From assembly GCA_029856525.1 (NCBI GenBank), contig JAHQXC010000045.1, positions 1 through 10,756 of the forward strand: a stretch of 10,756 nucleotides of DNA, in the 5' to 3' direction. The position numbers and the translations under genes are program-made. Below are positions 1 through 9,957 of this stretch, one piece after another. The DNA is from Candidatus Odinarchaeia archaeon (lineage in GTDB: Archaea; Asgardarchaeota; Odinarchaeia; Odinarchaeales; Odinarchaeaceae). The stretch's first letter is position 1; each line of letters opens with the position of its first letter. The notes beneath the pieces were generated by a model, which worked only from the letters and a program-made list of their open reading frames with translations, made no database searches and had not been told where the DNA came from.

Positions 1-38
1 TGAGTGTTCAACAGACTTAAAGAGTATAGGGGAGCAGG

Positions 39-560
39 CTAGCTTTCAGAAACCCGGTTTTTTAACTGTCTCTCAAATTTTTTAAGCGCTCTCTCAAAAA
101 GGTTAACCGTTTTTTTAAGCCTCTTCAACATGACTTCATGATTATCTTTTATATAGTATATTATAAGCTTGGAGGCTGTTTCACCTTCACCGCTTCTAGC
201 TTTCTCAACGGTTTCACGAAGACGCTTGCATACTTCTAAAAGACTTATAAGCCTATCTCTACCAGAGTTTAAAAAATAATAGCGCATTTTATCATCTAAA
301 CCACCTTTACATAAAGCTTTAACAGTATCAGTGAAAGCTAAAAGCTCTTTTAACAGCTCCTGTCTTAAATCTAATATCTCCAAGTATAATTCCAGTTCTC
401 TACGTATAATATTATCGTGTTCAAGGTATCTTTTCAATAATACGTCTACCAGACGCGTCTTCTCCTCTAAGGTATTGGGAGCCGGGTCTTGCGGTGAACC
501 GAAATGAGATTTTAAATACTCGTATAATAAGTTTAGATACTCGCACTCCTCTTCTCTCAT
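39..560 (-). CDS. Hypothetical, mostly alpha-helical protein (~173 aa)
   Basis: ORF track gives 39..575. The second ATG (560) is preceded by an SD-like GGAGGGGG, so 560 is the preferred start. L/E/K/R-rich with heptad-like repeats near the C-terminus (LKKTVNLFER-ALKKFER-QLKN). No family recognised. Confidence 0.75.
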   Translation of the reverse strand: MREEECEYLNLLYEYLKSHFGSPQDPAPNTLEEKTRLVDVLLKRYLEHDNIIRRELELYLEILDLRQELLKELLAFTDTVKALCKGGLDDKMRYYFLNSGRDRLISLLEVCKRLRETVEKARSGEGETASKLIIYYIKDNHEVMLKRLKKTVNLFERALKKFERQLKNRVSES

Positions 561-575
561 ATTACCCCCCTCCAT

Positions 576-688
576 TACAACACTAATACTATCTGCGAAT
601 ATTAATAGTTTTTTTAAACACGTATTTAAATTATAAGGTTACCTTTTTAACTGTTATTTTAATAAACTAAGATTAAACTAGTAGTAAT
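576..688. promoter_or_regulatory. Divergent AT-rich promoter region between the orphan gene and dinB
   Basis: Several TATA-like elements (TTTAAATTATAA 625-636; TTTTAATA 657-664) and an 11-bp palindrome AAGGT-T-ACCTT at 635-645. The individual elements cannot be assigned with certainty. Confidence 0.5.
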
Positions 689-1777
689 ATGCGTATTATT
701 TTACACGTTGACTTAGATTATTTCTACGCTCAAATCGAGGAGCGGGATAACCCTGTTTTAAAGGGGCGGCCTGTAGTCGTATGCGTTTACTCTGATCGCG
801 GCGGTGGAAGCGGGGTTGTAGCTGCAGCTAACTATATTAGTAGACGCTATAATGTTAAAGCCGGTATGCCTGTTAAAACAGCTGAAAAACTGTTGAAAGA
901 TTTTAACCCTGTGTTTCTACCTGTCCGCTTAAACTATTATGAAATAGTATCCGAGGAGGTTATGAATATTATTAAAGGTTACGGTGACGTCTTCGAACAG
1001 GCTAGCGTTGATGAAGCCTACCTGGATGTTACACGCAGGTTAAACGGTGATTTCAGTGAAGCCGCCGGCTACGCTTTTAAACTTCAAGCCGACGTCTACT
1101 TGAAAACAGGGCTCACATGCTCTATAGGCGTCAGCTATAATAAGCTTCTAGCTAAGATCGCGGCAGGCTACCGTAAACCTAACGGTGTAACTGTTATAGC
1201 TCCAGGTGAAGCTGAAAGCTTTCTGAAAACTTTAAAGATTTCTAAGATTCCAGGTATCGGCGTTAAAACTACTCGTATACTTGAAAGCAAAGGCTATAAG
1301 ACTGTAGGGGAATTGCAGAGTATACCTGTTGAAGAGTTGATGAGTTTTTTCGGCAGGAAAACCGGCTTATACATTTATAACGCGGCTAGAGGCTTAGACG
1401 AGGAGCCTGTTAAACCCCGCGGTCCGGTGCTTCAACACAGTAGGATTAAAACTCTCAGAGAGAATACTCGCAGCCTCGAGTATATTTTAAGCGAGCTTGA
1501 ACCGCTTATATCAGATTTAAACCGGGATTTAACATCTGAAGGCTTAAGTTTTAAAACTTTAACCGTGTTTTTCATCACCGTGGATCTTAAAATCCATTCT
1601 AAAAGCGTTACTTTCGAACACCGTTTCAACTCTTTAAACCCTGTTAGAAAAGAGATTTTAAAGTTGACTGAAAGCTTTCTAAGCGAAAACCCGTATAGTG
1701 TTAGGAGAGTAGGGTTAAAGGTTTCTAATCTTCTATGCGAGAGGGGTTCAGGCCAGGTGAAGCTTACATTCTTCTAA
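689..1777 (+). CDS. dinB: Y-family DNA polymerase IV (DinB/Dpo4-like translesion polymerase)
   Basis: HVDLDYFYAQIEE (catalytic Asp and steric-gate Tyr), PVVVCVYS..SGVVAAANY..R.Y.VKAGMP, SVDEAYLDVT, TCSIGVSYNKLLAKIA, thumb HhH IPGIG, little-finger domain and a C-terminal PIP-like QVKLTFF. Closely follows the Dpo4 motif pattern. Confidence 0.97.
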   Translation: MRIILHVDLDYFYAQIEERDNPVLKGRPVVVCVYSDRGGGSGVVAAANYISRRYNVKAGMPVKTAEKLLKDFNPVFLPVRLNYYEIVSEEVMNIIKGYGDVFEQASVDEAYLDVTRRLNGDFSEAAGYAFKLQADVYLKTGLTCSIGVSYNKLLAKIAAGYRKPNGVTVIAPGEAESFLKTLKISKIPGIGVKTTRILESKGYKTVGELQSIPVEELMSFFGRKTGLYIYNAARGLDEEPVKPRGPVLQHSRIKTLRENTRSLEYILSELEPLISDLNRDLTSEGLSFKTLTVFFITVDLKIHSKSVTFEHRFNSLNPVRKEILKLTESFLSENPYSVRRVGLKVSNLLCERGSGQVKLTFF

Positions 1778-1778
1778 G

Positions 1779-4259
1779 CTATCTACTAGACACGCTAGCG
1801 TATACTTTCAACTCTTCTAAAGCCATTTTAATAGTGTCCTCTTCCAGGTTACCAGGCGACTTATAAGCGTTGAAGAATAACTCGACTTCGCTGATATTCT
1901 TCAACCCGCTGAAAGGTGTGACGCTGGCGATCACCCTGCCTAAGTGGGTTAAAGGTAATTGTTCAAGTCTCTTAATATTATCTGTGAACCAGCTCCAAAG
2001 CCAGTTTAAAGCTGTAGGATTCCGTGCAGCTGAGTTCACTACTATGAATATATTGTTTTTAGCTACTTTACGCAGAGCATAGTCTAAAGCGTCTTTTAAC
2101 AGTTGACTGTCTGATACAGCTCCTAAAGCGTTCAACAAGTAAACTTTCTCCGTTTCAGTTATAGTATTCGACTCTAATCTTCTCTTAATATAGTTTAAAC
2201 CAGCCGGGTTCACGTATACGCCTGCTTTTAACGCGACTGGTTGAAGATCAGGGTGAACTATTCCACCTTCCAGTATCCTCTCGAATAAGCTGCTGCAATA
2301 TTCTCGGATACGTTTAGAGCCTAGAACGGTAGCTGTCCAGAGCATGATGTTACGGAGCTCTGATCTCTGCGGGGTTTCATCTTCAACAGGTTGCAGTCCT
2401 ATTCCGTCAAGTATTCTCTCACTCAGCTTCAACCCGTAGCCTATTATCTTAGACTTATACTGTGGGGTGATTAAATTTAACTCTAACAGGTTTCCAGCTA
2501 TATCTGAGGCTGGCAGATACCTGTCTTCGCTTCCATAATATTTTTCTAGAAGATACAGGTATTCTCCGATCGAATAGTCTCCTCTAAGCGTTAAAGCGTA
2601 GAAGTCGTTTTCAATGTTGAAGCTGTCAGCCGAGTTTAAAATCTTCTTAGAGGCTAATTCACCTAACCTTTCAAGGTTGCTCATACCATATTTAACTCTA
2701 TAGAATCCTCTTCCACCGCTATTCAACTTGAATACTGAGTCAACCGGTAAATCTTTAATACACTCCTCTCTGTTTCTTAAAACATACTCGAAGATTCCAC
2801 TATGCTCTCCGCCGTGTACAGTTAATTTAACAGGGATAATCCACTTTTCTTTAAACTCTCCAGGCTGATATGTGAAACGGGCCTGTTTTAATCGAAGAGT
2901 GTCATCTTCTAAATAAGCTGTGATTAAAGGATAGCCTGGTTGCTTAATCCAGGCGTCCGCGAACTCTCTGACAGGTGTCTGCGAAACCTCTTCGAATACA
3001 CTCCAATAGTCGTCTGTTGAAACATTTCTATAAGCGTGCCTTCTCAGGAAGACGCTGACAGCTTTCTGGAAGTCTTCTTCTCCCAGGTATTCAGCTAGCA
3101 TTAAAAGTATAGCTGCGCCTTTATTATATATTATCGGCGCTGTGGATGTGTTAATATTAACCGGGAGGTTTACAGGTAGTTGAATAGGGTGAGTGTGCTG
3201 TAACGAGTCTCTTTTAAACGCTTCCACACTATTCTCTAAAAGAAAGCGATCCCACATCTCCCAGTCAGGGTGTTGAACATCCACAGCCGCGTAGGAGAAA
3301 TAAGTGGCGAAGGATTCGTTAAGCCACAGATAACTCCAATCTAAAGGTGTAACTATATCCCCGAACCATAAATGCGCTGTTTCATGAGCTATAATAGAGG
3401 CGATTCGAACCAGGTTGCTACGGTTAGTCACATTCGGGTAGACTAGTAGAGCGTTCTCCCTGAACGTGATCGCCCCGTAATTCTCCATAGCCCCGAAGAC
3501 GAAGTCTTGTACACTAATATAATCGCATTTACCTGTCGGATAATCTAACCCAGTATACTTCTCCATGAAGCTTAAAGCCGCTCTAGCCTTCTTCAACGCG
3601 TAACCTGCGTAAACAGTTTTACCTGGAGGCGTCAGCACACGTATAACCGGTTTACTTGAAGCGTCTTGAATATGCTCGAATTCGCCGACGGCGAAGAAAA
3701 CCAGGTATGTGCTAAGTAAAGGCGTTGGCGCGAAACGCACCAGCCTCCTACCGTCGCCTAGCGGATACTCTTCTAAAATCTCAGTGTTAGATACAGCCGT
3801 CAACTTTTCGTCTACGATCAGCTCAATATTGAATACGGCTTTAAAAGAAGGGTGATCGAAGCATGGGAAGGCTCTCCTAGCTTCACGCTCCTCGAACTGG
3901 GTGACCGCGATATACTTTTCAACACCGTCAGCTGTAATATACTTGCTTTTATAGAAGCCGATCATTAAATCATTTATAACACCGTTAAACCTGATTTTTA
4001 AAACGAAACGCCCCTTCACCCTCCTAGGCGGGTGAACATGCAACTCCTCTCTTTCACCCACCACACTATAAGAGCACACATCCTCTCTACCCTTATATAA
4101 TAGAATACACTCTTCAACAGTTAAATCCTTCACGTTTAAAATAATCCGGTCAACCGGTGTATCCGACTTCAAATCAATAGCGACGAATCCTTTAAACTTA
4201 AACGATCCTAGATCAGGCTCCAATCTCACCAAATACTTTAAAGGCTTCAAACCAACCAC
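1779..4259 (-). CDS. M1-family zinc aminopeptidase (PepN / tricorn-interacting factor F2/F3 / PSA-like) with ERAP1-like C-terminal domain
   Basis: TQFEEREARRAFPCFDHP, GAMENYG exopeptidase motif, HETAH-x18-E zinc motif (HETAHLWFG...WLNESFATY), IIYNKG catalytic Tyr. Start is GTG 4259 or TTG 4250; the latter has GGTG at SD distance. Confidence 0.95.
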   Translation of the reverse strand: MVGLKPLKYLVRLEPDLGSFKFKGFVAIDLKSDTPVDRIILNVKDLTVEECILLYKGREDVCSYSVVGEREELHVHPPRRVKGRFVLKIRFNGVINDLMIGFYKSKYITADGVEKYIAVTQFEEREARRAFPCFDHPSFKAVFNIELIVDEKLTAVSNTEILEEYPLGDGRRLVRFAPTPLLSTYLVFFAVGEFEHIQDASSKPVIRVLTPPGKTVYAGYALKKARAALSFMEKYTGLDYPTGKCDYISVQDFVFGAMENYGAITFRENALLVYPNVTNRSNLVRIASIIAHETAHLWFGDIVTPLDWSYLWLNESFATYFSYAAVDVQHPDWEMWDRFLLENSVEAFKRDSLQHTHPIQLPVNLPVNINTSTAPIIYNKGAAILLMLAEYLGEEDFQKAVSVFLRRHAYRNVSTDDYWSVFEEVSQTPVREFADAWIKQPGYPLITAYLEDDTLRLKQARFTYQPGEFKEKWIIPVKLTVHGGEHSGIFEYVLRNREECIKDLPVDSVFKLNSGGRGFYRVKYGMSNLERLGELASKKILNSADSFNIENDFYALTLRGDYSIGEYLYLLEKYYGSEDRYLPASDIAGNLLELNLITPQYKSKIIGYGLKLSERILDGIGLQPVEDETPQRSELRNIMLWTATVLGSKRIREYCSSLFERILEGGIVHPDLQPVALKAGVYVNPAGLNYIKRRLESNTITETEKVYLLNALGAVSDSQLLKDALDYALRKVAKNNIFIVVNSAARNPTALNWLWSWFTDNIKRLEQLPLTHLGRVIASVTPFSGLKNISEVELFFNAYKSPGNLEEDTIKMALEELKVYASVSSR

Positions 4260-4262
4260 CCT

Positions 4263-5579
4263 TCAATCACAGCTTACACGGGTAATCCTATCACCTAGAA
4301 TAATATATAAAATTAAGCCGGCGACCACTATAATAAACTCCACTAAAACTATTAAAATATTAAAAGAGAATAATAGAAGCAGACATATAAAGGCACCTAT
4401 AATAGGAGGCGCCGGGATATTCTTCAAATTCAATCCTATTCTAAAAACCCGCGGTCTCCCCGGCTCCCTTATACGTAAAACAATCACACTTAAATTCACA
4501 AATAAGAATACGATTAGAATCCCGTAAACAGTCGCACTAGCAACCATCGATAAATCACCCATCAAAAGCATTAAAAGACTAACCGCCATCGCGAAGAATA
4601 CAGCTATATGCGGAGTCCCGGTTCTAGCTGAAACCCTGCATAAACGCGCAGGCAGCGCTCTATTCTTAGCCATACCGTAAACCAGCCTAGAAGTAGTCAC
4701 TAAAACGATTAAAACAGTATTCGCGGTCGCGAATAAAGCGATAAAAGAGATTAGAAACCCGCCGGCTGAGCCTAAAACAGTTAAAGCAACCAGGTTTAAA
4801 GGAGCGGGAGATGAGGCTAAAACACTGTAAGGTAGAATACTAACAACAGATAAAGCGAACAGACAGTAAAGCACAGTCGTAATAATAATCGAGTAGATAA
4901 TAGCCTTCGGAATATTCCGCTGCGCGTCAACACCCTCCTCCGCGAGATTCGCTACAACCTCGAAACCGAGATAAGCGAAGAAAACCAGGTTAACCGAGGA
5001 CACCAATCCGTCTAAACCGACACCAGCCGGAAGCTCAAAGTAATTCACGGAACCCCAGAACGGCACCCCGATAAAAATAATGAATAGAAGACCAGCCGCC
5101 TCCACAACCGTGAAAACAATATTCATCAAAGTCGACTCCCTTATACCAATATAGTTAACCAAACTCATCACAACAATTAAAACAGCAGCTAAACCAGCGT
5201 CAACCCATCCACCAGACAACCCTAATAAAGCTGAAAGATAACCGCCGAAACCTAAAGCAACAGCAGCCGCTGAGAATAAACCTGAAAAAACAACAATCCA
5301 ACCTAAAATAAAAGATAAAACCCTCACACGGAAAGCCCTGTCAACGTAAATAAAAGAAGCCGCACTCTCAGGATACATCGAAGAAAGCTCAGCGTAAGAT
5401 AAACCGATTAGAAAACCGATAAAAGCGGTTAAAACAAAACTCAGCCAAGCCATATTACCAGCTAAACCAACCACAGACCCGATTAAAGCATAAACACCAG
5501 CACCTAAAATATTCCCAACCCCGTAGAAAACCAAACCAATCAAAGAAACACGCCGCTTCAACACACCCCCATCAACCAT
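4263..5579 (-). CDS. APC-superfamily amino acid permease
   Basis: LKRRVSL...GVGNILGAGVYALIG (TM1), YAELSSMYPESAA, FFAYLGFEVVANLAEE (TM6), SRLVYGMA; about 12 hydrophobic segments. Start overlaps the upstream stop by 8 nt. Confidence 0.93.
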   Translation of the reverse strand: MVDGGVLKRRVSLIGLVFYGVGNILGAGVYALIGSVVGLAGNMAWLSFVLTAFIGFLIGLSYAELSSMYPESAASFIYVDRAFRVRVLSFILGWIVVFSGLFSAAAVALGFGGYLSALLGLSGGWVDAGLAAVLIVVMSLVNYIGIRESTLMNIVFTVVEAAGLLFIIFIGVPFWGSVNYFELPAGVGLDGLVSSVNLVFFAYLGFEVVANLAEEGVDAQRNIPKAIIYSIIITTVLYCLFALSVVSILPYSVLASSPAPLNLVALTVLGSAGGFLISFIALFATANTVLIVLVTTSRLVYGMAKNRALPARLCRVSARTGTPHIAVFFAMAVSLLMLLMGDLSMVASATVYGILIVFLFVNLSVIVLRIREPGRPRVFRIGLNLKNIPAPPIIGAFICLLLLFSFNILIVLVEFIIVVAGLILYIILGDRITRVSCD

Positions 5580-5988
5580 AAAAACCCTCCGACTTCAACA
5601 TCACACAAACACCCCAAACAACCTCGAAACCATTCCTCCTACAAAACTCTAAAACCTCATCAGACTCAGCTCCAGGCTGAAACCAAACACGCTTAACCCC
5701 AACCCTCAAACAATCCTCTAAAACCTTCAAACCAACACTCGGAGGCACCACAAACACTACAAAATCCACTTTAACAGGTAAATCTAAAACAGACCTGTAA
5801 ACCCGATCCCCACCAATAAAATCAACATTCGGATTAACCCCGTAAACCTCAAAACCCTTACCCTTCAAATCAAAATAAACACGGTAACCATACTTACCAG
5901 GATCACGAGAAACACCGACAACAGCCACCCGCCTACCACGCCTAAGAAAATCCTCAACCAACCCCTCCACAGCAACCACCAAAAACAA
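5572..5988 (-). CDS. CoA-binding domain protein (YccU/COG1832-like)
   Basis: VAVVGVSRDPGKYGYRVY, VYGVNP, YRSVLDLP.KVD.VV..VPP, VWFQPGAES, CVM: all characteristic of the family. Start uncertain (TTG 5988, GTG 5970 or TTG 5961). Confidence 0.92.
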   Translation of the reverse strand: MFLVVAVEGLVEDFLRRGRRVAVVGVSRDPGKYGYRVYFDLKGKGFEVYGVNPNVDFIGGDRVYRSVLDLPVKVDFVVFVVPPSVGLKVLEDCLRVGVKRVWFQPGAESDEVLEFCRRNGFEVVWGVCVMLKSEGFYG

Positions 5989-6002
5989 GAAACAAAAACC
6001 AT

Positions 6003-6025
6003 AAAATAAAAAATAAAAAGAAAAA
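6003..6025 (-). terminator. Oligo-T archaeal terminator downstream of the ferritin-like gene
   Basis: TTTTTCTTTTTATTTTTTATTTT directly follows the TAA at 6026-6028 on the minus strand. Confidence 0.6.
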
Positions 6026-6445
6026 TTAAAGCTCCTCTAACAAAGTAGTAAACGTATCGTGATGATCCTCCTCATCCGCTAAAATACCCCTGAACAAATG
6101 AGCAGTAGTCACATCACCCTCCTTCGAAGCCACCTCAATCACAGACTTATAAAGCTTAATAGCACCCTCCTCATCCCTAGCATCCTGCTCCAACATCTCC
6201 TTCAAACTAGAACCCACAAAAATAGGCTCAGGCTTAGTCGTCGGAACACCGCCAAGATAAACAAGACGCTCAGCAATAGCCTCAGCATGCTTCATCTCAA
6301 CAACAGCAATACTACGCAAAACATCCTTCACCGCAAAACCCTTAACACCACGCCACTGAACATGCTGCCACATATACTGAATACTAACCTGCAACTCACG
6401 AGCAATAGACCTATTCAACAAATCCAACAACTCCTTACTCACCAT
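6026..6445 (-). CDS. Short bacterioferritin-like / ferritin-superfamily di-iron protein (139 aa)
   Basis: Start moved to ATG 6445, which has SD GGTGGTG. Ferroxidase ligands E17, E50-x-x-H53, E92, E125-x-x-H128 and Y24 match E. coli Bfr E18/Y25/E51/H54/E94/E127/H130 spacing. Met51 in EMKH matches heme-ligand Met52. Confidence 0.9.
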   Translation of the reverse strand: MVSKELLDLLNRSIARELQVSIQYMWQHVQWRGVKGFAVKDVLRSIAVVEMKHAEAIAERLVYLGGVPTTKPEPIFVGSSLKEMLEQDARDEEGAIKLYKSVIEVASKEGDVTTAHLFRGILADEEDHHDTFTTLLEEL

Positions 6446-6468
6446 ACACACCACCAAACAACAATAAT

Positions 6469-6594
6469 TTAAACAAAACTATAAGCAAAACCCCTTTTAT
6501 ACCTTTCCATAAAAGCCTCGCTAAATTTTTTAGGTTTATTAAGGCGGAAAATTAGAACAAATGAAACAATAAATATAATAACAAAACCTAACAT
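6469..6594 (-). CDS. Possible small single-pass membrane protein (41 aa), not in the ORF track
   Basis: ATG 6594..TAA 6469 gives MLGFVIIFIVSFVLIFRLNKPKKFSEAFMERYKRGFAYSFV: hydrophobic stretch then basic cluster. No clear SD, it overlaps the promoter above, and the T-rich composition could mimic hydrophobicity. Confidence 0.2.
   Translation of the reverse strand: MLGFVIIFIVSFVLIFRLNKPKKFSEAFMERYKRGFAYSFV
6494..6510 (-). promoter_or_regulatory. BRE-TATA promoter for the ferritin-like gene
   Basis: GGAAAGG-TATAAAAG on the minus strand, about 50 nt upstream of ATG 6445, predicting a TSS near 6470-6475. Confidence 0.6.
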
Positions 6595-6675
6595 AAAATT
6601 ACACGTAAAAATCAAAAAACACTCAACCAACAAGATTAGAGAAACCCGTAAACTAAATTTATCAAACAGTTTAAC

Positions 6676-7107
6676 CTAACCCATAGTTAAATATTCATCC
6701 AACACCCGGTTAACCAGCATATCAGCTCTCATAATCATAGGGTGCCCTCTATAAACGTGATTATATACCACACTGTGAAATAATTTCTCTAATCCCTTAA
6801 CACGCGTATACAATTCTTTAAGCCTAATATTTCTAACCTTGTAGACACCGTTTAACTGGCTAACAACAAGCCTGCTATCAGAGTAAACGTCAACTCTATT
6901 CCGAGTGTAATCTTTAGCAGCAGTCAAACCTTCAATAATCGCGTTATACTCAGCCCAATTATTAGATCCTAAACCTAGAAAAACACCCTTCTCAAATAAA
7001 ACCTGATCTTTAAAATCGCAGAGAACCACACCTACCGCACACTCACCTAGCTCAACCCGATTCCCACGCGACCCACCGTCAGCGTAAACTCTAATATACT
7101 CGTACAG
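6676..7107 (-). CDS. rnhA: Ribonuclease HI (type 1 RNase H); true start upstream of the ORF-track start, probably CTG 7107
   Basis: The frame stays open upstream of GTG 7029 and encodes YEYIRVYADGGSRGN (first catalytic Asp). The other catalytic residues are in NNWAEY, VYSDSRLVVSQLNG and RADMLVN. In-frame TAG at 7122-7120; SD AGGAG at 7121-7117. Confidence 0.9.
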   Translation of the reverse strand: MYEYIRVYADGGSRGNRVELGECAVGVVLCDFKDQVLFEKGVFLGLGSNNWAEYNAIIEGLTAAKDYTRNRVDVYSDSRLVVSQLNGVYKVRNIRLKELYTRVKGLEKLFHSVVYNHVYRGHPMIMRADMLVNRVLDEYLTMG

Positions 7108-7127
7108 AAGAATACTCTCCTATAATG

Positions 7128-7433
7128 TCAGCCTAAATTTCTCATAACAGATTCAACCTTAGACTTAATAGAAATCTTCTTATCACGTCGATCATCGATT
7201 TTAACCTGTGTTAAAACACGGTTCACACCCATCTTGAAAACAGCTTCATGAGCTTGTTTAACAGCTTCGAAAACAGTATCCAAGTCTTCAGCCTCTATAA
7301 TAGTAGCCATAGAGGTGACCTCTACACGAATATTTTCAAAAGACTGTAAAACAGTTATAGCTCTAGCAACATACTTACTTAAACTAGCAGTAGCGGTCCC
7401 TAAAGGAACAATACTAACCTCCGCGACAACCAT
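7128..7433 (-). CDS. MTH1187/YkoF-like thiamine-binding family protein
   Basis: AEVSIVPLGT..ASLSKYVA, TSMATIIE, EAH.AVF..G..RVLT.VKIDDRRDK, KVESV; SD GGTGG at 7443-7439. Confidence 0.93.
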   Translation of the reverse strand: MVVAEVSIVPLGTATASLSKYVARAITVLQSFENIRVEVTSMATIIEAEDLDTVFEAVKQAHEAVFKMGVNRVLTQVKIDDRRDKKISIKSKVESVMRNLG

Positions 7434-7464
7434 TCAAACCACCATAGTAATAATAACAACATAG

Positions 7465-7474
7465 TTTATAAAAA
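7465..7474. promoter_or_regulatory. Palindromic TATA box TTTATAAA between divergent genes
   Basis: TTTATAAA at 7465-7472 reads the same on both strands; 32 nt from ATG 7433 (-) and 65 nt from ATG 7537 (+). Confidence 0.5.
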
Positions 7475-7536
7475 TATAATAGAATACGGTGAAAAATAAA
7501 CCAGCTTGCGAATAACACTATTACAGGTAGAGTGAA

Positions 7537-8265: not shown

Positions 8266-9957
8266 TTAGTCGGGCGGGATCTCTTTAAATCTTAAATCCA
8301 TCGGCACGCCTTTACGCTTGTTAATGAAGTACGCTGCATAGTAGAGTATGAACGGTATGATTACGAAGAATGCTACTGTACCCACTATCTGCTCCATGCC
8401 ACCTCCGCCGCCTATTAAAGCAGCTACAGGCGGGGCTAAAGCAGAGTAGGCACCCCAAGCTGCAACACCGAGAGTTACAACGCCTAGAATTGAAATAGCT
8501 GGTATACCTCCTATCCGTTTCTGAACGACACCCGGTGATTTCTCGAAGATATCTCTTCTCCTCCACGGGAATACGATACCTGCTATGCCGAATACACACC
8601 AGCCGATCATCCAGATAGCGATCGTGTGTATAATATATGCTAGCCATGTAGTCCAAGTGTTAATCGTGAATATAATCCATGCTATTGCACCGCCTAAAAT
8701 CACTGAGTTCACAGGTGAACCGCGTCTATTCACCTGGTTAACCCATTTCGGTAGAATACCGTCAAAAGACCATGCGAACAGGTTTCTCACAGGACCGAAC
8801 GCGAGAGTCAGCATACCGCCGAAGTCGATAACCGCGAAGTGTATCGTGCTTATCCCTGTTAGAATCGGGTTAGCTGTAGTGAATATAACGTTATAGGTAG
8901 CTAACGGCAGTTTATAAGCTATGTCGAAGCCGAAGTAGTATGCAAGCCAGTCACCTGTAACACTGCCAGGGCACGGTATACCTGCAGCGTTAGCTTGATC
9001 CATCATAGCGATAGCCTGATACCATACTGAGCCGAATCCAGCGTATTGGAAGAATGTGAAGATCTCCCAGTATACTACGAAAAGCGCTAATGAGCCTAGT
9101 TGAGCCAGCGTCTGAGCTGCTTTAACCTCTTTTATTTCACCGGCTATGTTAGCGGTGAAAGTTGAACCGAGCGTGCTAAGATTCAGATATGTAGCACCAG
9201 CCATAAGAGTCGGTAGAAGATATGTAGCACCGTTCGGGAATGTTTGACCAAGCGCGGTTGCCGCGCTTACAGCACCGTTTATAATATCAGTGTATGAGTG
9301 CCCTGTGTATAGTAGAATATTATTCTGCACGGTCGCTGACATCGGGCCGCCGGCCATTAAAGCAGCGATACCGTAGACGGCTAAACCGATAAAGTTCCAT
9401 ATGAAGATAATCCATGTGAACTTTATAACTGTTCGTGTACCCCTAGCCATGATAAAGTAGCAGACGATTAACGCTAATGTTCCTATAATCCATGCTTCGA
9501 TTGTACTAGGCTGGTTAAGATATAAGCCTAAGTCTCTTAGCGCTGTGTTACCTGAAAGAAGACCCTGCGCTAGTAGAGTGTCACCGAAACCCCAGTTAAT
9601 CAACCATGTGGTAAGGCAACCGGACCAGTTTAAACCTACAATAGTCAACGTCCAACAGGCGAATAAACCCCAGGCAGGTGATATAACCCTGCTTACATAA
9701 ATGTATTCACCGCCGGATCTAGGCATGCTGATCGAGAACATCACGTATAAGCCTGCGATAGGCATCAGTGATAGAATCCACAGCGAAGCTATGTAAACAT
9801 CAGCCCCCGGGTTGAATGTCTGACACCATATAATATAGTGAGCTGCGTAAGCTATGGTTGGAGCTACGAAAGAATAGGCCAGTGCATCCCACTTGCTTAT
9901 AACTCTTGTAAGACCTGAGGCTTTCCTAACGAATACAGTTTTAGCTTCCTCGCTCAT
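8266..9957 (-). CDS. APC-superfamily amino acid/amine permease of the archaeal FVR.ASGL.R type
   Basis: N-terminal FVRKASGLTRVIS..DA, MPRSGGEYIYVSR, AGEIK, RNLFAWSFDG.LP, C-terminal FKEIPPD; 12-14 hydrophobic segments; SD AGGGGA. Confidence 0.92.
   Translation of the reverse strand: MSEEAKTVFVRKASGLTRVISKWDALAYSFVAPTIAYAAHYIIWCQTFNPGADVYIASLWILSLMPIAGLYVMFSISMPRSGGEYIYVSRVISPAWGLFACWTLTIVGLNWSGCLTTWLINWGFGDTLLAQGLLSGNTALRDLGLYLNQPSTIEAWIIGTLALIVCYFIMARGTRTVIKFTWIIFIWNFIGLAVYGIAALMAGGPMSATVQNNILLYTGHSYTDIINGAVSAATALGQTFPNGATYLLPTLMAGATYLNLSTLGSTFTANIAGEIKEVKAAQTLAQLGSLALFVVYWEIFTFFQYAGFGSVWYQAIAMMDQANAAGIPCPGSVTGDWLAYYFGFDIAYKLPLATYNVIFTTANPILTGISTIHFAVIDFGGMLTLAFGPVRNLFAWSFDGILPKWVNQVNRRGSPVNSVILGGAIAWIIFTINTWTTWLAYIIHTIAIWMIGWCVFGIAGIVFPWRRRDIFEKSPGVVQKRIGGIPAISILGVVTLGVAAWGAYSALAPPVAALIGGGGGMEQIVGTVAFFVIIPFILYYAAYFINKRKGVPMDLRFKEIPPD

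Follow-up and report, generated by a model that had tools for sequence, protein, structure and literature searches.

A heritable G+T-rich strand tract at a bacterioferritin promoter region of an odinarchaeal chromosome and its possible origin in a displaced DNA strand

The window, by which we mean the whole stretch of 10,756 nucleotides that was analysed, contains a series of minus-strand genes. In the direction of that strand, these are one thiamine-binding-protein gene (7128–7433; Pfam Thiamine_BP), one rnhA-like gene (6676–7029; Pfam RVT_3/RNase_H), one bacterioferritin-like gene (6026–6457; Pfam Ferritin, E=5e-31), one CoA-binding-domain gene (5572–5988; Pfam CoA_binding_2, E=3e-31, full length), one APC-family amino-acid permease gene (4263–5579; Pfam AA_permease_2, E=3e-43) and one M1 aminopeptidase gene (1779–4259; Pfam Peptidase_M1). 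The best solved match of the bacterioferritin-like protein is a 139-aa bacterioferritin (E=1e-33), and both ExxH motifs are kept. The bacterioferritin gene is preceded by an upstream element (6459–6590, minus strand), of which ∼125–130 b are kept in all four genomes of the genus; it contains one TATA-like box ∼55 nt 5′ of the ATG, one leader composed of G and T only, and one conserved upstream block.

The plus strand of positions 3300–7525 is A+C-rich, and the minus strand is G+T-rich. This tract, delineated by composition profile, genome-wide ranking, codon-block gradient and jump analysis, is ∼3.5–4 kb in its entirety. Its core (4263–6590, minus strand) is ∼2.3 kb in length, and a weaker part of the same polarity lies upstream at 6676–7433. 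Over ∼3.5 kb of this hot-spring Odinarchaeota genome, the freely changeable A and C are almost all gone from one strand, and the genes are ordinary in nature; all are coded on the G+T-rich strand, intact, and match their families over the full length. Among 8351 windows of 600 b, the mean keto skew is −0.007 with an SD of 0.070; the one starting at 5401 reaches −0.553 (∼8 SD), and the four most extreme ones of the 1.32-Mb genome all fall inside the bacterioferritin/CoA-binding island. The plus-strand counts of the first-pass annotation, A23 C26 G2 T9 at 5581–5640 and A24 C23 G5 T8 at 6301–6360, are exact; the lack of G at 6421–6480 was reproduced, as was its internal control, the second APC permease, in which 10 of the first 19 codons end in A or C. 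The same annotation let the skew fade at the 5′ end of the aminopeptidase gene on the left, which stands, and end at 6670 or within rnhA on the right, which does not. A weaker skew, with G/T-ending fractions of 0.69–0.70, persists across the rnhA-like and thiamine-binding genes up to ∼7525. There, inside the divergent intergenic region (7434–7536, no strand assigned), a jump scan with arms of 200 and 300 b placed the upward keto-skew jump that is larger than any other in the window; it marks where the whole tract ends on its upstream side.

Long open reading frames of the genome (n = 1186) have a mean G/T-ending codon fraction of 0.492 with an SD of 0.067. The bacterioferritin and CoA-binding genes rank 1 and 2 with 0.958 and 0.906, respectively; by codon count, 138 of 143 (0.965) and 126 of 138 codons (0.913) end in G or T. 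The last count had been given before, together with 30 Val, one Ile and neither Thr nor His in the protein, and we obtained the same values. The four-fold sites of the bacterioferritin gene are G14 T42 C1 A0, and its second-position composition is normal. In the CoA-binding gene, the first and second codon positions are skewed too (0.76 and 0.65). In the APC permease gene, the fraction is 0.86 at the 5′ end and drops to 0.58 towards the 3′ end; the product of this gene is shifted to Val and Arg and shows replacement asymmetry against the G006 and G013 orthologues. In the aminopeptidase gene, only the first ∼100 codons (∼3960–4259) are clearly skewed (0.70–0.72); the remainder is at baseline and serves as an internal control. 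The gradient thus runs along the minus strand, from bacterioferritin through the CoA-binding and permease genes to baseline ∼100 codons into the aminopeptidase gene. The skew is highest directly 3′ of the bacterioferritin promoter region, from where it declines over ∼3 kb in the minus-strand 5′-to-3′ direction.

The pressure is strand-specific and hits all codon positions and the spacers; as the first-pass annotation held, it is indifferent to gene boundaries. Minus-strand A and C have become G and T wherever the proteins allow, while selection on the constrained sites preserves protein function. At four-fold sites, neither the T:G nor the A:C ratio departs from the baseline, so the composition can be accounted for by just two biased minus-strand transitions, C>T and A>G, as had been proposed.

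The tract is present at the orthologous genes in all four genomes (species) of the genus, with peaks of 0.47–0.59, and its genes keep the same order in the four species; orthologues also occur at the order and phylum levels. Silent third-position differences between species affect 37–42% of the identical-residue codons in the aminopeptidase gene and 7–9% in the bacterioferritin gene, where about half of them are G<->T. Silent transitions are near saturation, yet the tract is kept in four genomes, so each lineage maintains the skew. The tract is therefore ancient, heritable and actively maintained with a fixed polarity; it is neither a past event nor a recent burst. The order-level orthologues (52–53% identity) have no skew, and the proteins are recoded relative to them in the direction predicted at the outset: Ile>Val 36:5, Lys>Arg 11:2 and Leu>Val 10:0. 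One gene inserted only in the closed relative G002, between the bacterioferritin and CoA-binding genes, has just moderate skew.

The strong part of the tract begins at the 6459–6590 element. In the two genomes with differing upstream neighbours, the skew sets in ∼150–200 b before the ATG and is ∼0 farther upstream. Two observations here weigh against the reading preferred below: this onset lies upstream of the predicted transcription start, and in the source genome the tract extends over the rnhA-like and thiamine-binding genes. In G002, these two genes are located at another place, where they again directly precede a very strong island with this polarity. A second copy of the element precedes the thioredoxin gene of G002, at the sharp edge of an island that runs in the same direction and is the only other one of comparable strength. 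A 112-b inverted repeat flanks a 41-kb inversion in G002; the spacer upstream of the bacterioferritin gene makes up one of the arms of this repeat, and only this 112-b promoter piece is duplicated. The same spacer is a synteny breakpoint in two of the four genomes. G001 has a single copy of the element, unchanged synteny and an equally strong island. In the Logan contigs of the source run, we also observed a break at 6546–6575.

The island is not unique: ∼27 are found in the source genome and 42 in G002. In dozens of tracts, the G+T-rich strand has a sharp onset at the 5′ end and gradually fades 3′-wards. Abrupt jumps up and down number 21:5, 12:3 and 5:0 in G002 at thresholds of 0.35, 0.4 and 0.5, respectively. 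In 440 kb of an Asgard archaeon of another family, they number 8:1 and 5:0, versus ∼3.8:3.7 after block shuffling, and all 12 skewed contig ends of G000 carry the predicted sign. Seen in two Asgard families, this polarity rule is a constraint on every mechanism proposed for GRINS-like skews. It rules out that the skew stems from deaminated 3′ tails, as break resection would leave them at the start point, since the sign would then be opposite.

Polarity does not track gene direction genome-wide: among the strongly skewed genes, the coding strand is G+T-rich in 19 and A+C-rich in 28, and single islands cover both orientations. A weak general effect of the same sign as the tract does exist at transcription-unit starts, where the G/T-ending fraction over the first 40 codons deviates by +0.046 in first genes versus −0.019 in internal ones (Mann–Whitney p=1e-10). 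Islands running against the genes that they cover include those at cas4-cas1 beside a CRISPR leader, at the 3′ end of a class-I tRNA synthetase gene and at the actin gene of G002. Since sense transcription cannot be the displacing process there, all islands, the bacterioferritin tract included, may share a non-transcriptional cause. Their neighbourhoods contain CRISPR arrays, rearrangement breakpoints and defence islands, the latter with type III restriction-modification, methylase and SMC/helicase genes. Among the 42 islands, 25 lie within 1 kb of a segment without a sister-genome orthologue (7.1 ± 2.4 expected); the flanks of such variable segments show −|+ polarity in 12 cases versus 1, and the inserted segments are unskewed, whereas their host flanks are skewed.

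Taken together, these observations point to a strong and local mutation process on one strand, with fixed polarity. Considering that all codon positions and the spacers are affected, that the replacements are directional and that islands cover both gene orientations, its origin looks mutational rather than codon-driven. Our preferred reading, to which we give not quite an even chance, is that the strand running 5′-to-3′ from a fixed start, which is the bacterioferritin promoter region in this tract, is displaced time and again, becomes single-stranded and gains C>T and A>G changes. At hot-spring temperature, the displaced strand would gather C-to-U and A-to-hypoxanthine damage, which would become fixed as these two transitions. 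The start point coincides with a conserved co-directional promoter, so an R-loop would be the most likely displacing structure, either by itself or as the primer of DNA synthesis in a D-loop, like the one known from the mitochondrial heavy-strand origin. A displaced strand enriched in G should in turn favour R-loops, which may lead to a self-reinforcing state. Two points of background weigh against strand displacement: in a re-annealed strand, accurate repair of the deaminated bases is to be expected, and uracil and hypoxanthine in the template stall the replicative polymerases of archaea.

Error-prone synthesis linked to recombination or repair is unlikely as the cause, but it ranks first among the alternatives. 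In such a GRINS-type process, synthesis would begin at sites prone to recombination and proceed outward, and G:T-type mispairs would let the new strand gain G+T; break repair that re-synthesises the resected 5′ strand would give the same geometry. It is independent of gene orientation, and the association of the islands with hypervariable loci, CRISPR arrays and defence islands, the excess of −|+ flanks, and the breakpoint, repeat and inversion at the bacterioferritin-upstream spacer all speak for it. Daughter-strand C>T and A>G changes arising from mispairs, with a link to gene conversion, were proposed by Nivina et al. (PMC8256042). However, the island of G001 is equally strong with one element copy and unchanged synteny, the island is single-copy, the two strongest islands are co-directional with their shared promoter, and rare events would have to exceed background mutation >10-fold at silent sites. 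We regard as improbable a short-range start of DNA synthesis without transcription, origin-like or recombination-dependent, which would often abort within a few kb and leave the lagging-strand template or the displaced strand exposed. The sharp upward jumps share their sign with those of bacterial origins, and several sources show two-sided −|+ patterns. Against it, we found no opposite-sign partner of the one-sided bacterioferritin tract and no orc1/cdc6 gene near it (the Cdc6_C matches of G002 are at 503, 606 and 625 kb, versus 1318–1320 kb for the island), a 3-kb decay is unlike that of normal forks, and CRISPR arrays are unlikely origins.

Selection, either for translational codon preference or for G+U-rich, weakly structured mRNA of stress genes, is very improbable. 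It is plausible that the bacterioferritin and thioredoxin genes are stress genes with high expression, and bacterioferritin is extreme at third positions only, but spacers and first and second positions are skewed elsewhere in the tract, protein composition is shifted radically, the gradient crosses four genes, and other islands are biased oppositely on the coding strand or span both orientations; a search for motif enrichment found none. Expression-type codon preference had been named by the first-pass annotation as a possible refutation, and it fails on the islands that oppose their genes. So does block transfer, the second one, since the same-genus gradient is tied to one start across changed synteny. 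A block from a strand-asymmetric donor, such as a virus or plasmid replicating via single-stranded DNA, would fit the many islands that adjoin mobile or defence DNA. Nevertheless, we give it slightly less credence than selection: these are core genes whose orthologues keep their order in the four species and also outside them, the skew persists despite saturated silent sites, inserts are unskewed beside skewed host flanks, and the gradient ends inside a gene, that of the aminopeptidase. An artefact of assembly, binning or sequencing, the third such refutation, has next to no chance. Many islands do lie at contig ends in the draft genome, but the tract is found in four assemblies, one of which is closed, that were made independently and from different samples, its genes are all intact, and Logan contigs made from the source run (X1) by a second assembler cover 20–6575 with three differences and even depth.

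The displaced-strand reading can be extended, although the extension is speculative and on balance unlikely: Asgard chromosomes may contain dozens of fixed displacement tracts, in which a strand is peeled off for 1–3 kb by an R-loop or a mostly abortive, R-loop-primed D-loop. Starting at strong promoters, CRISPR arrays and the edges of defence islands, this would happen so frequently that the strand evolves like the mitochondrial heavy strand. Such tracts would change the encoded proteins and be hot spots at which rearrangements and gene insertions occur, and they may reinforce themselves via G-enrichment. If so, the prokaryotes most closely related to eukaryotes would have a heritable layer of local mutation-rate architecture that had not been described before. 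Should the displaced-strand reading hold, DNA topology, namely which strand is exposed and where exposure starts, would direct how sequences and proteins evolve over kilobases, and would do so as strongly as is otherwise known from mitochondria alone. Tract starts are found at CRISPR arrays, at defence-island insertion sites and at inversion breakpoints, and this ties the process to genome plasticity. In practice, such tracts are a source of distortion when codon usage, phylogeny or horizontal transfer of Asgard genes is analysed, and short-read assemblies break there.

The tract can be compared with several known systems. At bacterial origins and in human skew N-domains, the G+T skew jumps upward abruptly and then gradually declines. 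The Asgard tracts share this shape and sign convention; however, origin skews span hundreds of kb, while the tract is 2–3 kb in size and one-sided, and it has neither the adjacent orc1/cdc6 gene nor the skew sign flip of an archaeal replication origin.

The closest printed kind is GRINS, described in 2021 in bacteria and two eukaryotic groups without mention of archaea (PMC8256042). GRINS are >500 bp, with mean absolute GC and TA skews >0.15 in 150-nt windows that are correlated and of the same sign, and they have a duplicate of >80% DNA identity in the same cluster or genome (PMC8256042). The tract exceeds this length, and its mean absolute GC and TA skews are 0.39 and 0.31 over 3900–7300, versus 0.14 and 0.12 outside. 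The core plus-strand values are −0.38 and −0.40, and the two skews correlate with r=0.38 over the whole window and weakly (r=0.11) inside the island. Like GRINS, the tract shows intense skews on the kilobase scale within functional genes, of the same sign in its core and strongest at third positions, with gain of Val/Gly-type residues and loss of Thr/His/Pro/Gln and with recombination-prone or mobile DNA nearby; C>T and A>G transitions have been proposed for both. Different from GRINS, which are duplicated, it is single-copy: blastn of 3800–7500 against the draft genome (93% complete) returned only itself. GRINS also change sign abruptly within the element, whereas the Asgard tracts obey a single polarity rule, lie beside the variable or repeated DNA instead of within it, and are passed on at positions that are orthologous between species.

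In mammalian genes, a G+T excess of the non-template strand begins near the transcription start and fades over 1–2 kb; it has been attributed to the single-stranded state, and GC skew has been linked to R-loops (PMC10030826). The tract likewise has a non-template G+T excess that fades downstream, with an onset, measured in the genomes with differing upstream neighbours, within ∼200 b of the element; the bacterioferritin tract and its G002 twin both begin at the promoter and run with transcription. The amplitude is different, 96% versus a few per cent in mammals, and many sister islands oppose their genes. Vertebrate mitochondrial DNA also has one G+T-rich and one A+C-rich strand, a difference attributed to deamination of C and A on the strand that is displaced during strand-displacement replication, for which a promoter transcript serves as the primer. 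In mitochondria, the asymmetry extends over an entire small genome whose mode of replication is known, whereas the tract occupies 3 kb of a 1.3–1.4-Mb cellular chromosome, with a putative displacement process; at silent sites, the strand asymmetry of the two is of similar degree.

The window is the entire contig C75 of the draft genome (1.32 Mb, 127 contigs), and the closed relative, G002, one of three further genomes from the genus, has a closed chromosome of 1,418,269 b. Six genes lie in a row on the minus strand, each with a full-length match to its family. In transcription order they encode a thiamine-binding protein (7128–7433), an rnhA-like protein (6676–7029), a bacterioferritin-like protein of 143 residues with both ExxH iron-site motifs retained (6026–6457), a CoA-binding-domain protein (5572–5988), an APC permease (4263–5579) and an M1 aminopeptidase (1779–4259). 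The aminopeptidase gene converges with a plus-strand gene for a Y-family (DinB/Dpo4-type) translesion DNA polymerase (689–1777); the two 3′ ends are 1–2 b apart, leaving no space for terminators. That an error-prone polymerase gene and rnhA adjoin a mutation tract may be coincidence.

The base, codon and residue counts of the first-pass annotation were each reproduced exactly. In 300-b windows, the plus-strand GC skew falls to −0.67 and the AT skew is +0.42 to +0.56. The keto skew, the excess of G+T on one strand, reaches −0.553 in 600-b windows, compared with a genome-wide mean of −0.007 (SD 0.070), and the four most extreme 600-b windows of the genome are all inside this island. Along the minus strand, the fraction of codons ending in G or T is 0.70 in the thiamine-binding gene, 0.69 in rnhA, 0.965 in bacterioferritin and 0.913 in the CoA-binding gene, the last two being the highest among 1186 long ORFs; it drops from 0.86 to 0.58 within the APC permease. 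The first-pass annotation had placed the tract between a fade in the 5′ part of the aminopeptidase gene and position 6670. The left fade was borne out, as the first 100 codons of that gene have values of 0.72 and 0.70 and the remainder is at the baseline of ∼0.45. The right limit was not; because the bias persists through the rnhA and thiamine-binding genes, we place it at ∼7525, the largest upward jump of the window.

In the other three genomes of the genus, the orthologous genes have this island too, in the same shape and with peaks of 0.47–0.59. Reassembly of the source run with a second assembler gave one 6.5-kb contig that spans the island at even depth, with three differences. An assembly artefact, which the first-pass annotation had considered, does not fit these results. 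The break between Logan contigs of the source run, at 6546–6575 with a 30-b overlap, falls within a conserved promoter element and suggests a branch in the graph (a second copy or a population structural variant). The island is absent from orthologues in the same order and phylum (permeases 52–53% identical). Import as a transferred block does not fit the gradient, which ends within a gene, or the changed surrounding gene order. A recent burst does not fit either, since the island is shared by species whose divergence at silent sites is old: in the unskewed aminopeptidase, 37–42% of identical-residue codons differ at the third position between species. For bacterioferritin the value is only 7–9%, about half of it G↔T. 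If the pressure had ended with the common ancestor, every lineage would have lost the bias to transitions; it is therefore still being maintained in all four.

In the second APC permease (8266–9957, minus strand), protein identity between species is 95–96%, compared with 70–80% for the neighboring genes. Recent inter-species transfer, to which 95% identical residues might point, is rejected by an ordinary silent divergence of 34%, which indicates unusually strong purifying selection instead.

Several observations favor mutation rather than selection as the source of the focal skew. Codon positions 1 and 2 are also skewed (0.76 and 0.65 in the CoA-binding gene, 0.65 and 0.65 in the permease), and so are the spacers within the tract. 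The Ile to Val and Lys to Arg shifts predicted by the first-pass annotation were found when the permeases of the genus were compared with unskewed orthologues: Ile>Val 36:5 and Lys>Arg 11:2, together with Leu>Val 10:0 and Met>Val 4:0. Bacterioferritin retains its iron ligands and has a normal second codon position; purifying selection preserves the protein as its silent sites go to fixation. Strongly skewed and unskewed genes have equal T:G and A:C ratios at four-fold sites, so two biased transitions on the G+T-rich strand, C>T and A>G, suffice and an extra transversion process is not needed. Direct purine-to-T damage (depurination), suggested by the excess of T over G at four-fold sites, was dropped because unskewed genes have the same ratios. 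A polar motif of the Chi or KOPS type was ruled out as the cause, because no 5- or 6-mer is strongly enriched and no context preference is seen around residual C or A on the G+T-rich strand.

The first-pass annotation had suggested counting similar islands genome-wide. In the draft genome, |keto| exceeds 0.22 over 500 b or more in 27 stretches; G002 has 56 of these, or 42 after merging. According to family searches, island genes with a G+T-rich coding strand include a DNA methylase, a radical-SAM enzyme and Cas6, and those with an A+C-rich coding strand include Cas4, a primase-polymerase, a PadR regulator, a dehydrogenase and the 3′ end of a class-I tRNA synthetase. Among strongly skewed genes the coding strand is G+T-rich in 19 and A+C-rich in 28, and in G002 individual islands extend over adjacent genes of opposite orientation with the plus-strand sign unchanged. 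Since islands cover either gene orientation, codon preference and sense transcription alone cannot explain the class.

Third-position skew per gene correlates between the draft genome and G002 (r = 0.69), and part of the islands are lineage-specific. The actin homologue (534,567–535,727 in G002, L056; 5684–6321 on draft contig C3) is 99% identical in protein and differs at half of its third positions; its skew is −0.60 (strongly A/C-ending) in G002 versus −0.12 in the draft genome, and the net flows are T>C, G>A and T>A. The actin gene of G002 adjoins a 5-kb insertion bearing a methylase, and the draft contig terminates within actin. Islands are also present in samples of three other closed Asgard genomes, which rules out a restriction to thermophilic Odinarchaeum.

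The islands follow a rule of polarity: sharp skew changes on the plus strand are nearly always upward. Upward and downward jumps in G002 number 21:5, 12:3, 7:1 and 5:0 at thresholds of 0.35, 0.40, 0.45 and 0.50, respectively. In a contiguous 440 kb of G017, a closed Asgard genome of another family (49% G+C), they number 8:1 and 5:0, compared with 3.8:3.7 after block shuffling. As the statistic is invariant to reverse-complementing, the excess means that the G+T-rich strand begins sharply at its own 5′ end and fades toward its 3′ end. Draft contigs end at sharp edges, and with the terminal 600 b and a threshold of 0.2, left ends were positive in 4:0 and right ends negative in 8:0 cases, 12 of 12 as predicted.

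Many of these starts lie beside variable segments, defined as at least 1.5 kb of G002 without a good orthologue in the draft genome. Within 1 kb of such a segment we found 25 of the 42 G002 islands (7.1 ± 2.4 expected), and the conserved genes flanking the segments show minus-then-plus skew in 12 cases versus 1. The variable segments include both CRISPR arrays of the genome (1,343,568–1,349,614 and 1,360,362–1,363,077) and genes of defence-island type (type III restriction-modification, DNA methylases, and a helicase alongside an SMC-like ATPase). The inserted DNA itself has no skew, and one flip point is present in the draft genome though the 10-kb insertion of G002 is absent there. At 1,203,169–1,204,229 (L090), a 1-kb insertion found only in G002 encodes a membrane protein of 337 residues that belongs to no known family; the flanks of the insertion have a strong minus-then-plus skew (−0.51 and +0.62), and the same genes, adjacent in the draft genome, are unskewed there. 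tRNA genes were rejected as general starts, with 4 of 42 islands within 1 kb and 3.0 expected.

Positions 1,150,000–1,405,000 of G002 hold a concentration of skew islands, defence islands and rearrangements, along with both CRISPR arrays. The cumulative keto skew has its maximum at 1.29 Mb, approximately across the chromosome from the three orc1/cdc6 genes (503–625 kb); the region may be a terminus-like, highly plastic zone. The first-pass annotation had proposed relating the islands to orc1/cdc6. No Cdc6/Orc1 gene is near the focal tract, on which ground an origin of replication there was rejected.

The strong part of the focal tract starts at a predicted promoter. All four genomes have in common a conserved stretch of ∼125–130 b 5′ of the bacterioferritin start codon, with a TATA-like box ∼55 nt before the ATG and a leader almost purely of G and T. 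Synteny breaks in the spacer beyond this stretch: G001 has the gene order of the window, and G002 and G003 have different neighbors. In the latter two, the skew is ∼0 farther upstream and turns on 150–200 b before the ATG. G002 alone has a second copy, a 112-b inverted element (94% identical) that precedes a thioredoxin gene, so that one promoter is common to two oxidative-stress genes in this genome. The two copies, at 1,279,348–1,279,457 and 1,320,247–1,320,358 (L094/L095; L105, L107), bracket a 41-kb segment inverted relative to the window gene order. The thioredoxin copy sits at the sharp edge of the only other similarly strong island of G002 (keto +0.45, third positions 0.96), and both islands run in the firing direction of the predicted promoter. 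As a universal island start the element was rejected, because a profile search matched only bacterioferritin in the four genomes and the one thioredoxin gene of G002. Genome-wide, the first genes of transcription units exceed internal genes in G/T-ending codons, a weak effect of the same sign that declines with distance. Between the bacterioferritin and CoA-binding genes, G002 carries its own insertion of ∼600 b (1,319,205–1,319,827, L095), only moderately skewed despite lying in the strongest part of the tract. It encodes an apparently frameshifted, fasciclin-like reading frame, which we take to resemble a FAS1-type C-terminus.

Every tract fits a single geometry, in which the strand with its 5′ end at the start point is exposed or receives special treatment. 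At the focal locus, silent-site G/A and T/C ratios above ∼15–25 imply exposure for a sizeable share of the time rather than in rare events. Candidate processes would be an R-loop formed by a transcript that sets out from the start, DNA synthesis that is primed at this point and displaces the parental strand (a D-loop, as known from mitochondrial DNA), strand displacement initiated at a nick, the lagging-strand template of forks departing from the start, the 3′ tails of an imported linear fragment with the variable segment at its centre, or error-prone synthesis that replaces a resected 5′ strand. If a break were resected and the remaining 3′ tail deaminated, the flanks would be plus-then-minus, the reverse of those observed; by geometric reasoning, fork stalling at the start with a damaged exposed template also predicts the opposite sign. 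Both were rejected.

For the focal locus we tentatively prefer a putative R-loop, or an R-loop-primed process, because the start coincides with a conserved, predicted promoter oriented in the same direction, its duplicate heads the twin island, and a general transcription-unit-start effect exists. Non-template-strand G+T excess and the link of GC skew to R-loops are both established (PMC10030826), and G-enrichment that promotes further R-loops could explain discrete, heritable islands. However, many tracts run against their own genes, which counts against the R-loop reading and makes a single recombination-linked cause for all tracts a serious, though less probable, rival.

Our literature search turned up no account of tracts of this kind in archaea; the closed Odinarchaeum genome paper gives global cumulative skews only. 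The polarity rule, the placement of tracts beside rather than within CRISPR arrays, defence islands and breakpoints, and their inheritance at orthologous sites were likewise not found in print. The nearest printed description is that of GRINS, skewed repeat elements described in bacteria and two eukaryotic groups. Their GC and TA skews are intense, lie within functional genes, peak at third positions and arise by an unknown mechanism, and the elements are associated with mobile and recombination genes; the paper mentions single-copy skewed regions only in passing and does not treat archaea (PMC8256042). Different from GRINS, the focal island lacks the repeats by which these elements are defined. 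Like GRINS, it has the length, the intensity and the codon-position pattern that characterize them, and it shows the same amino-acid shifts.
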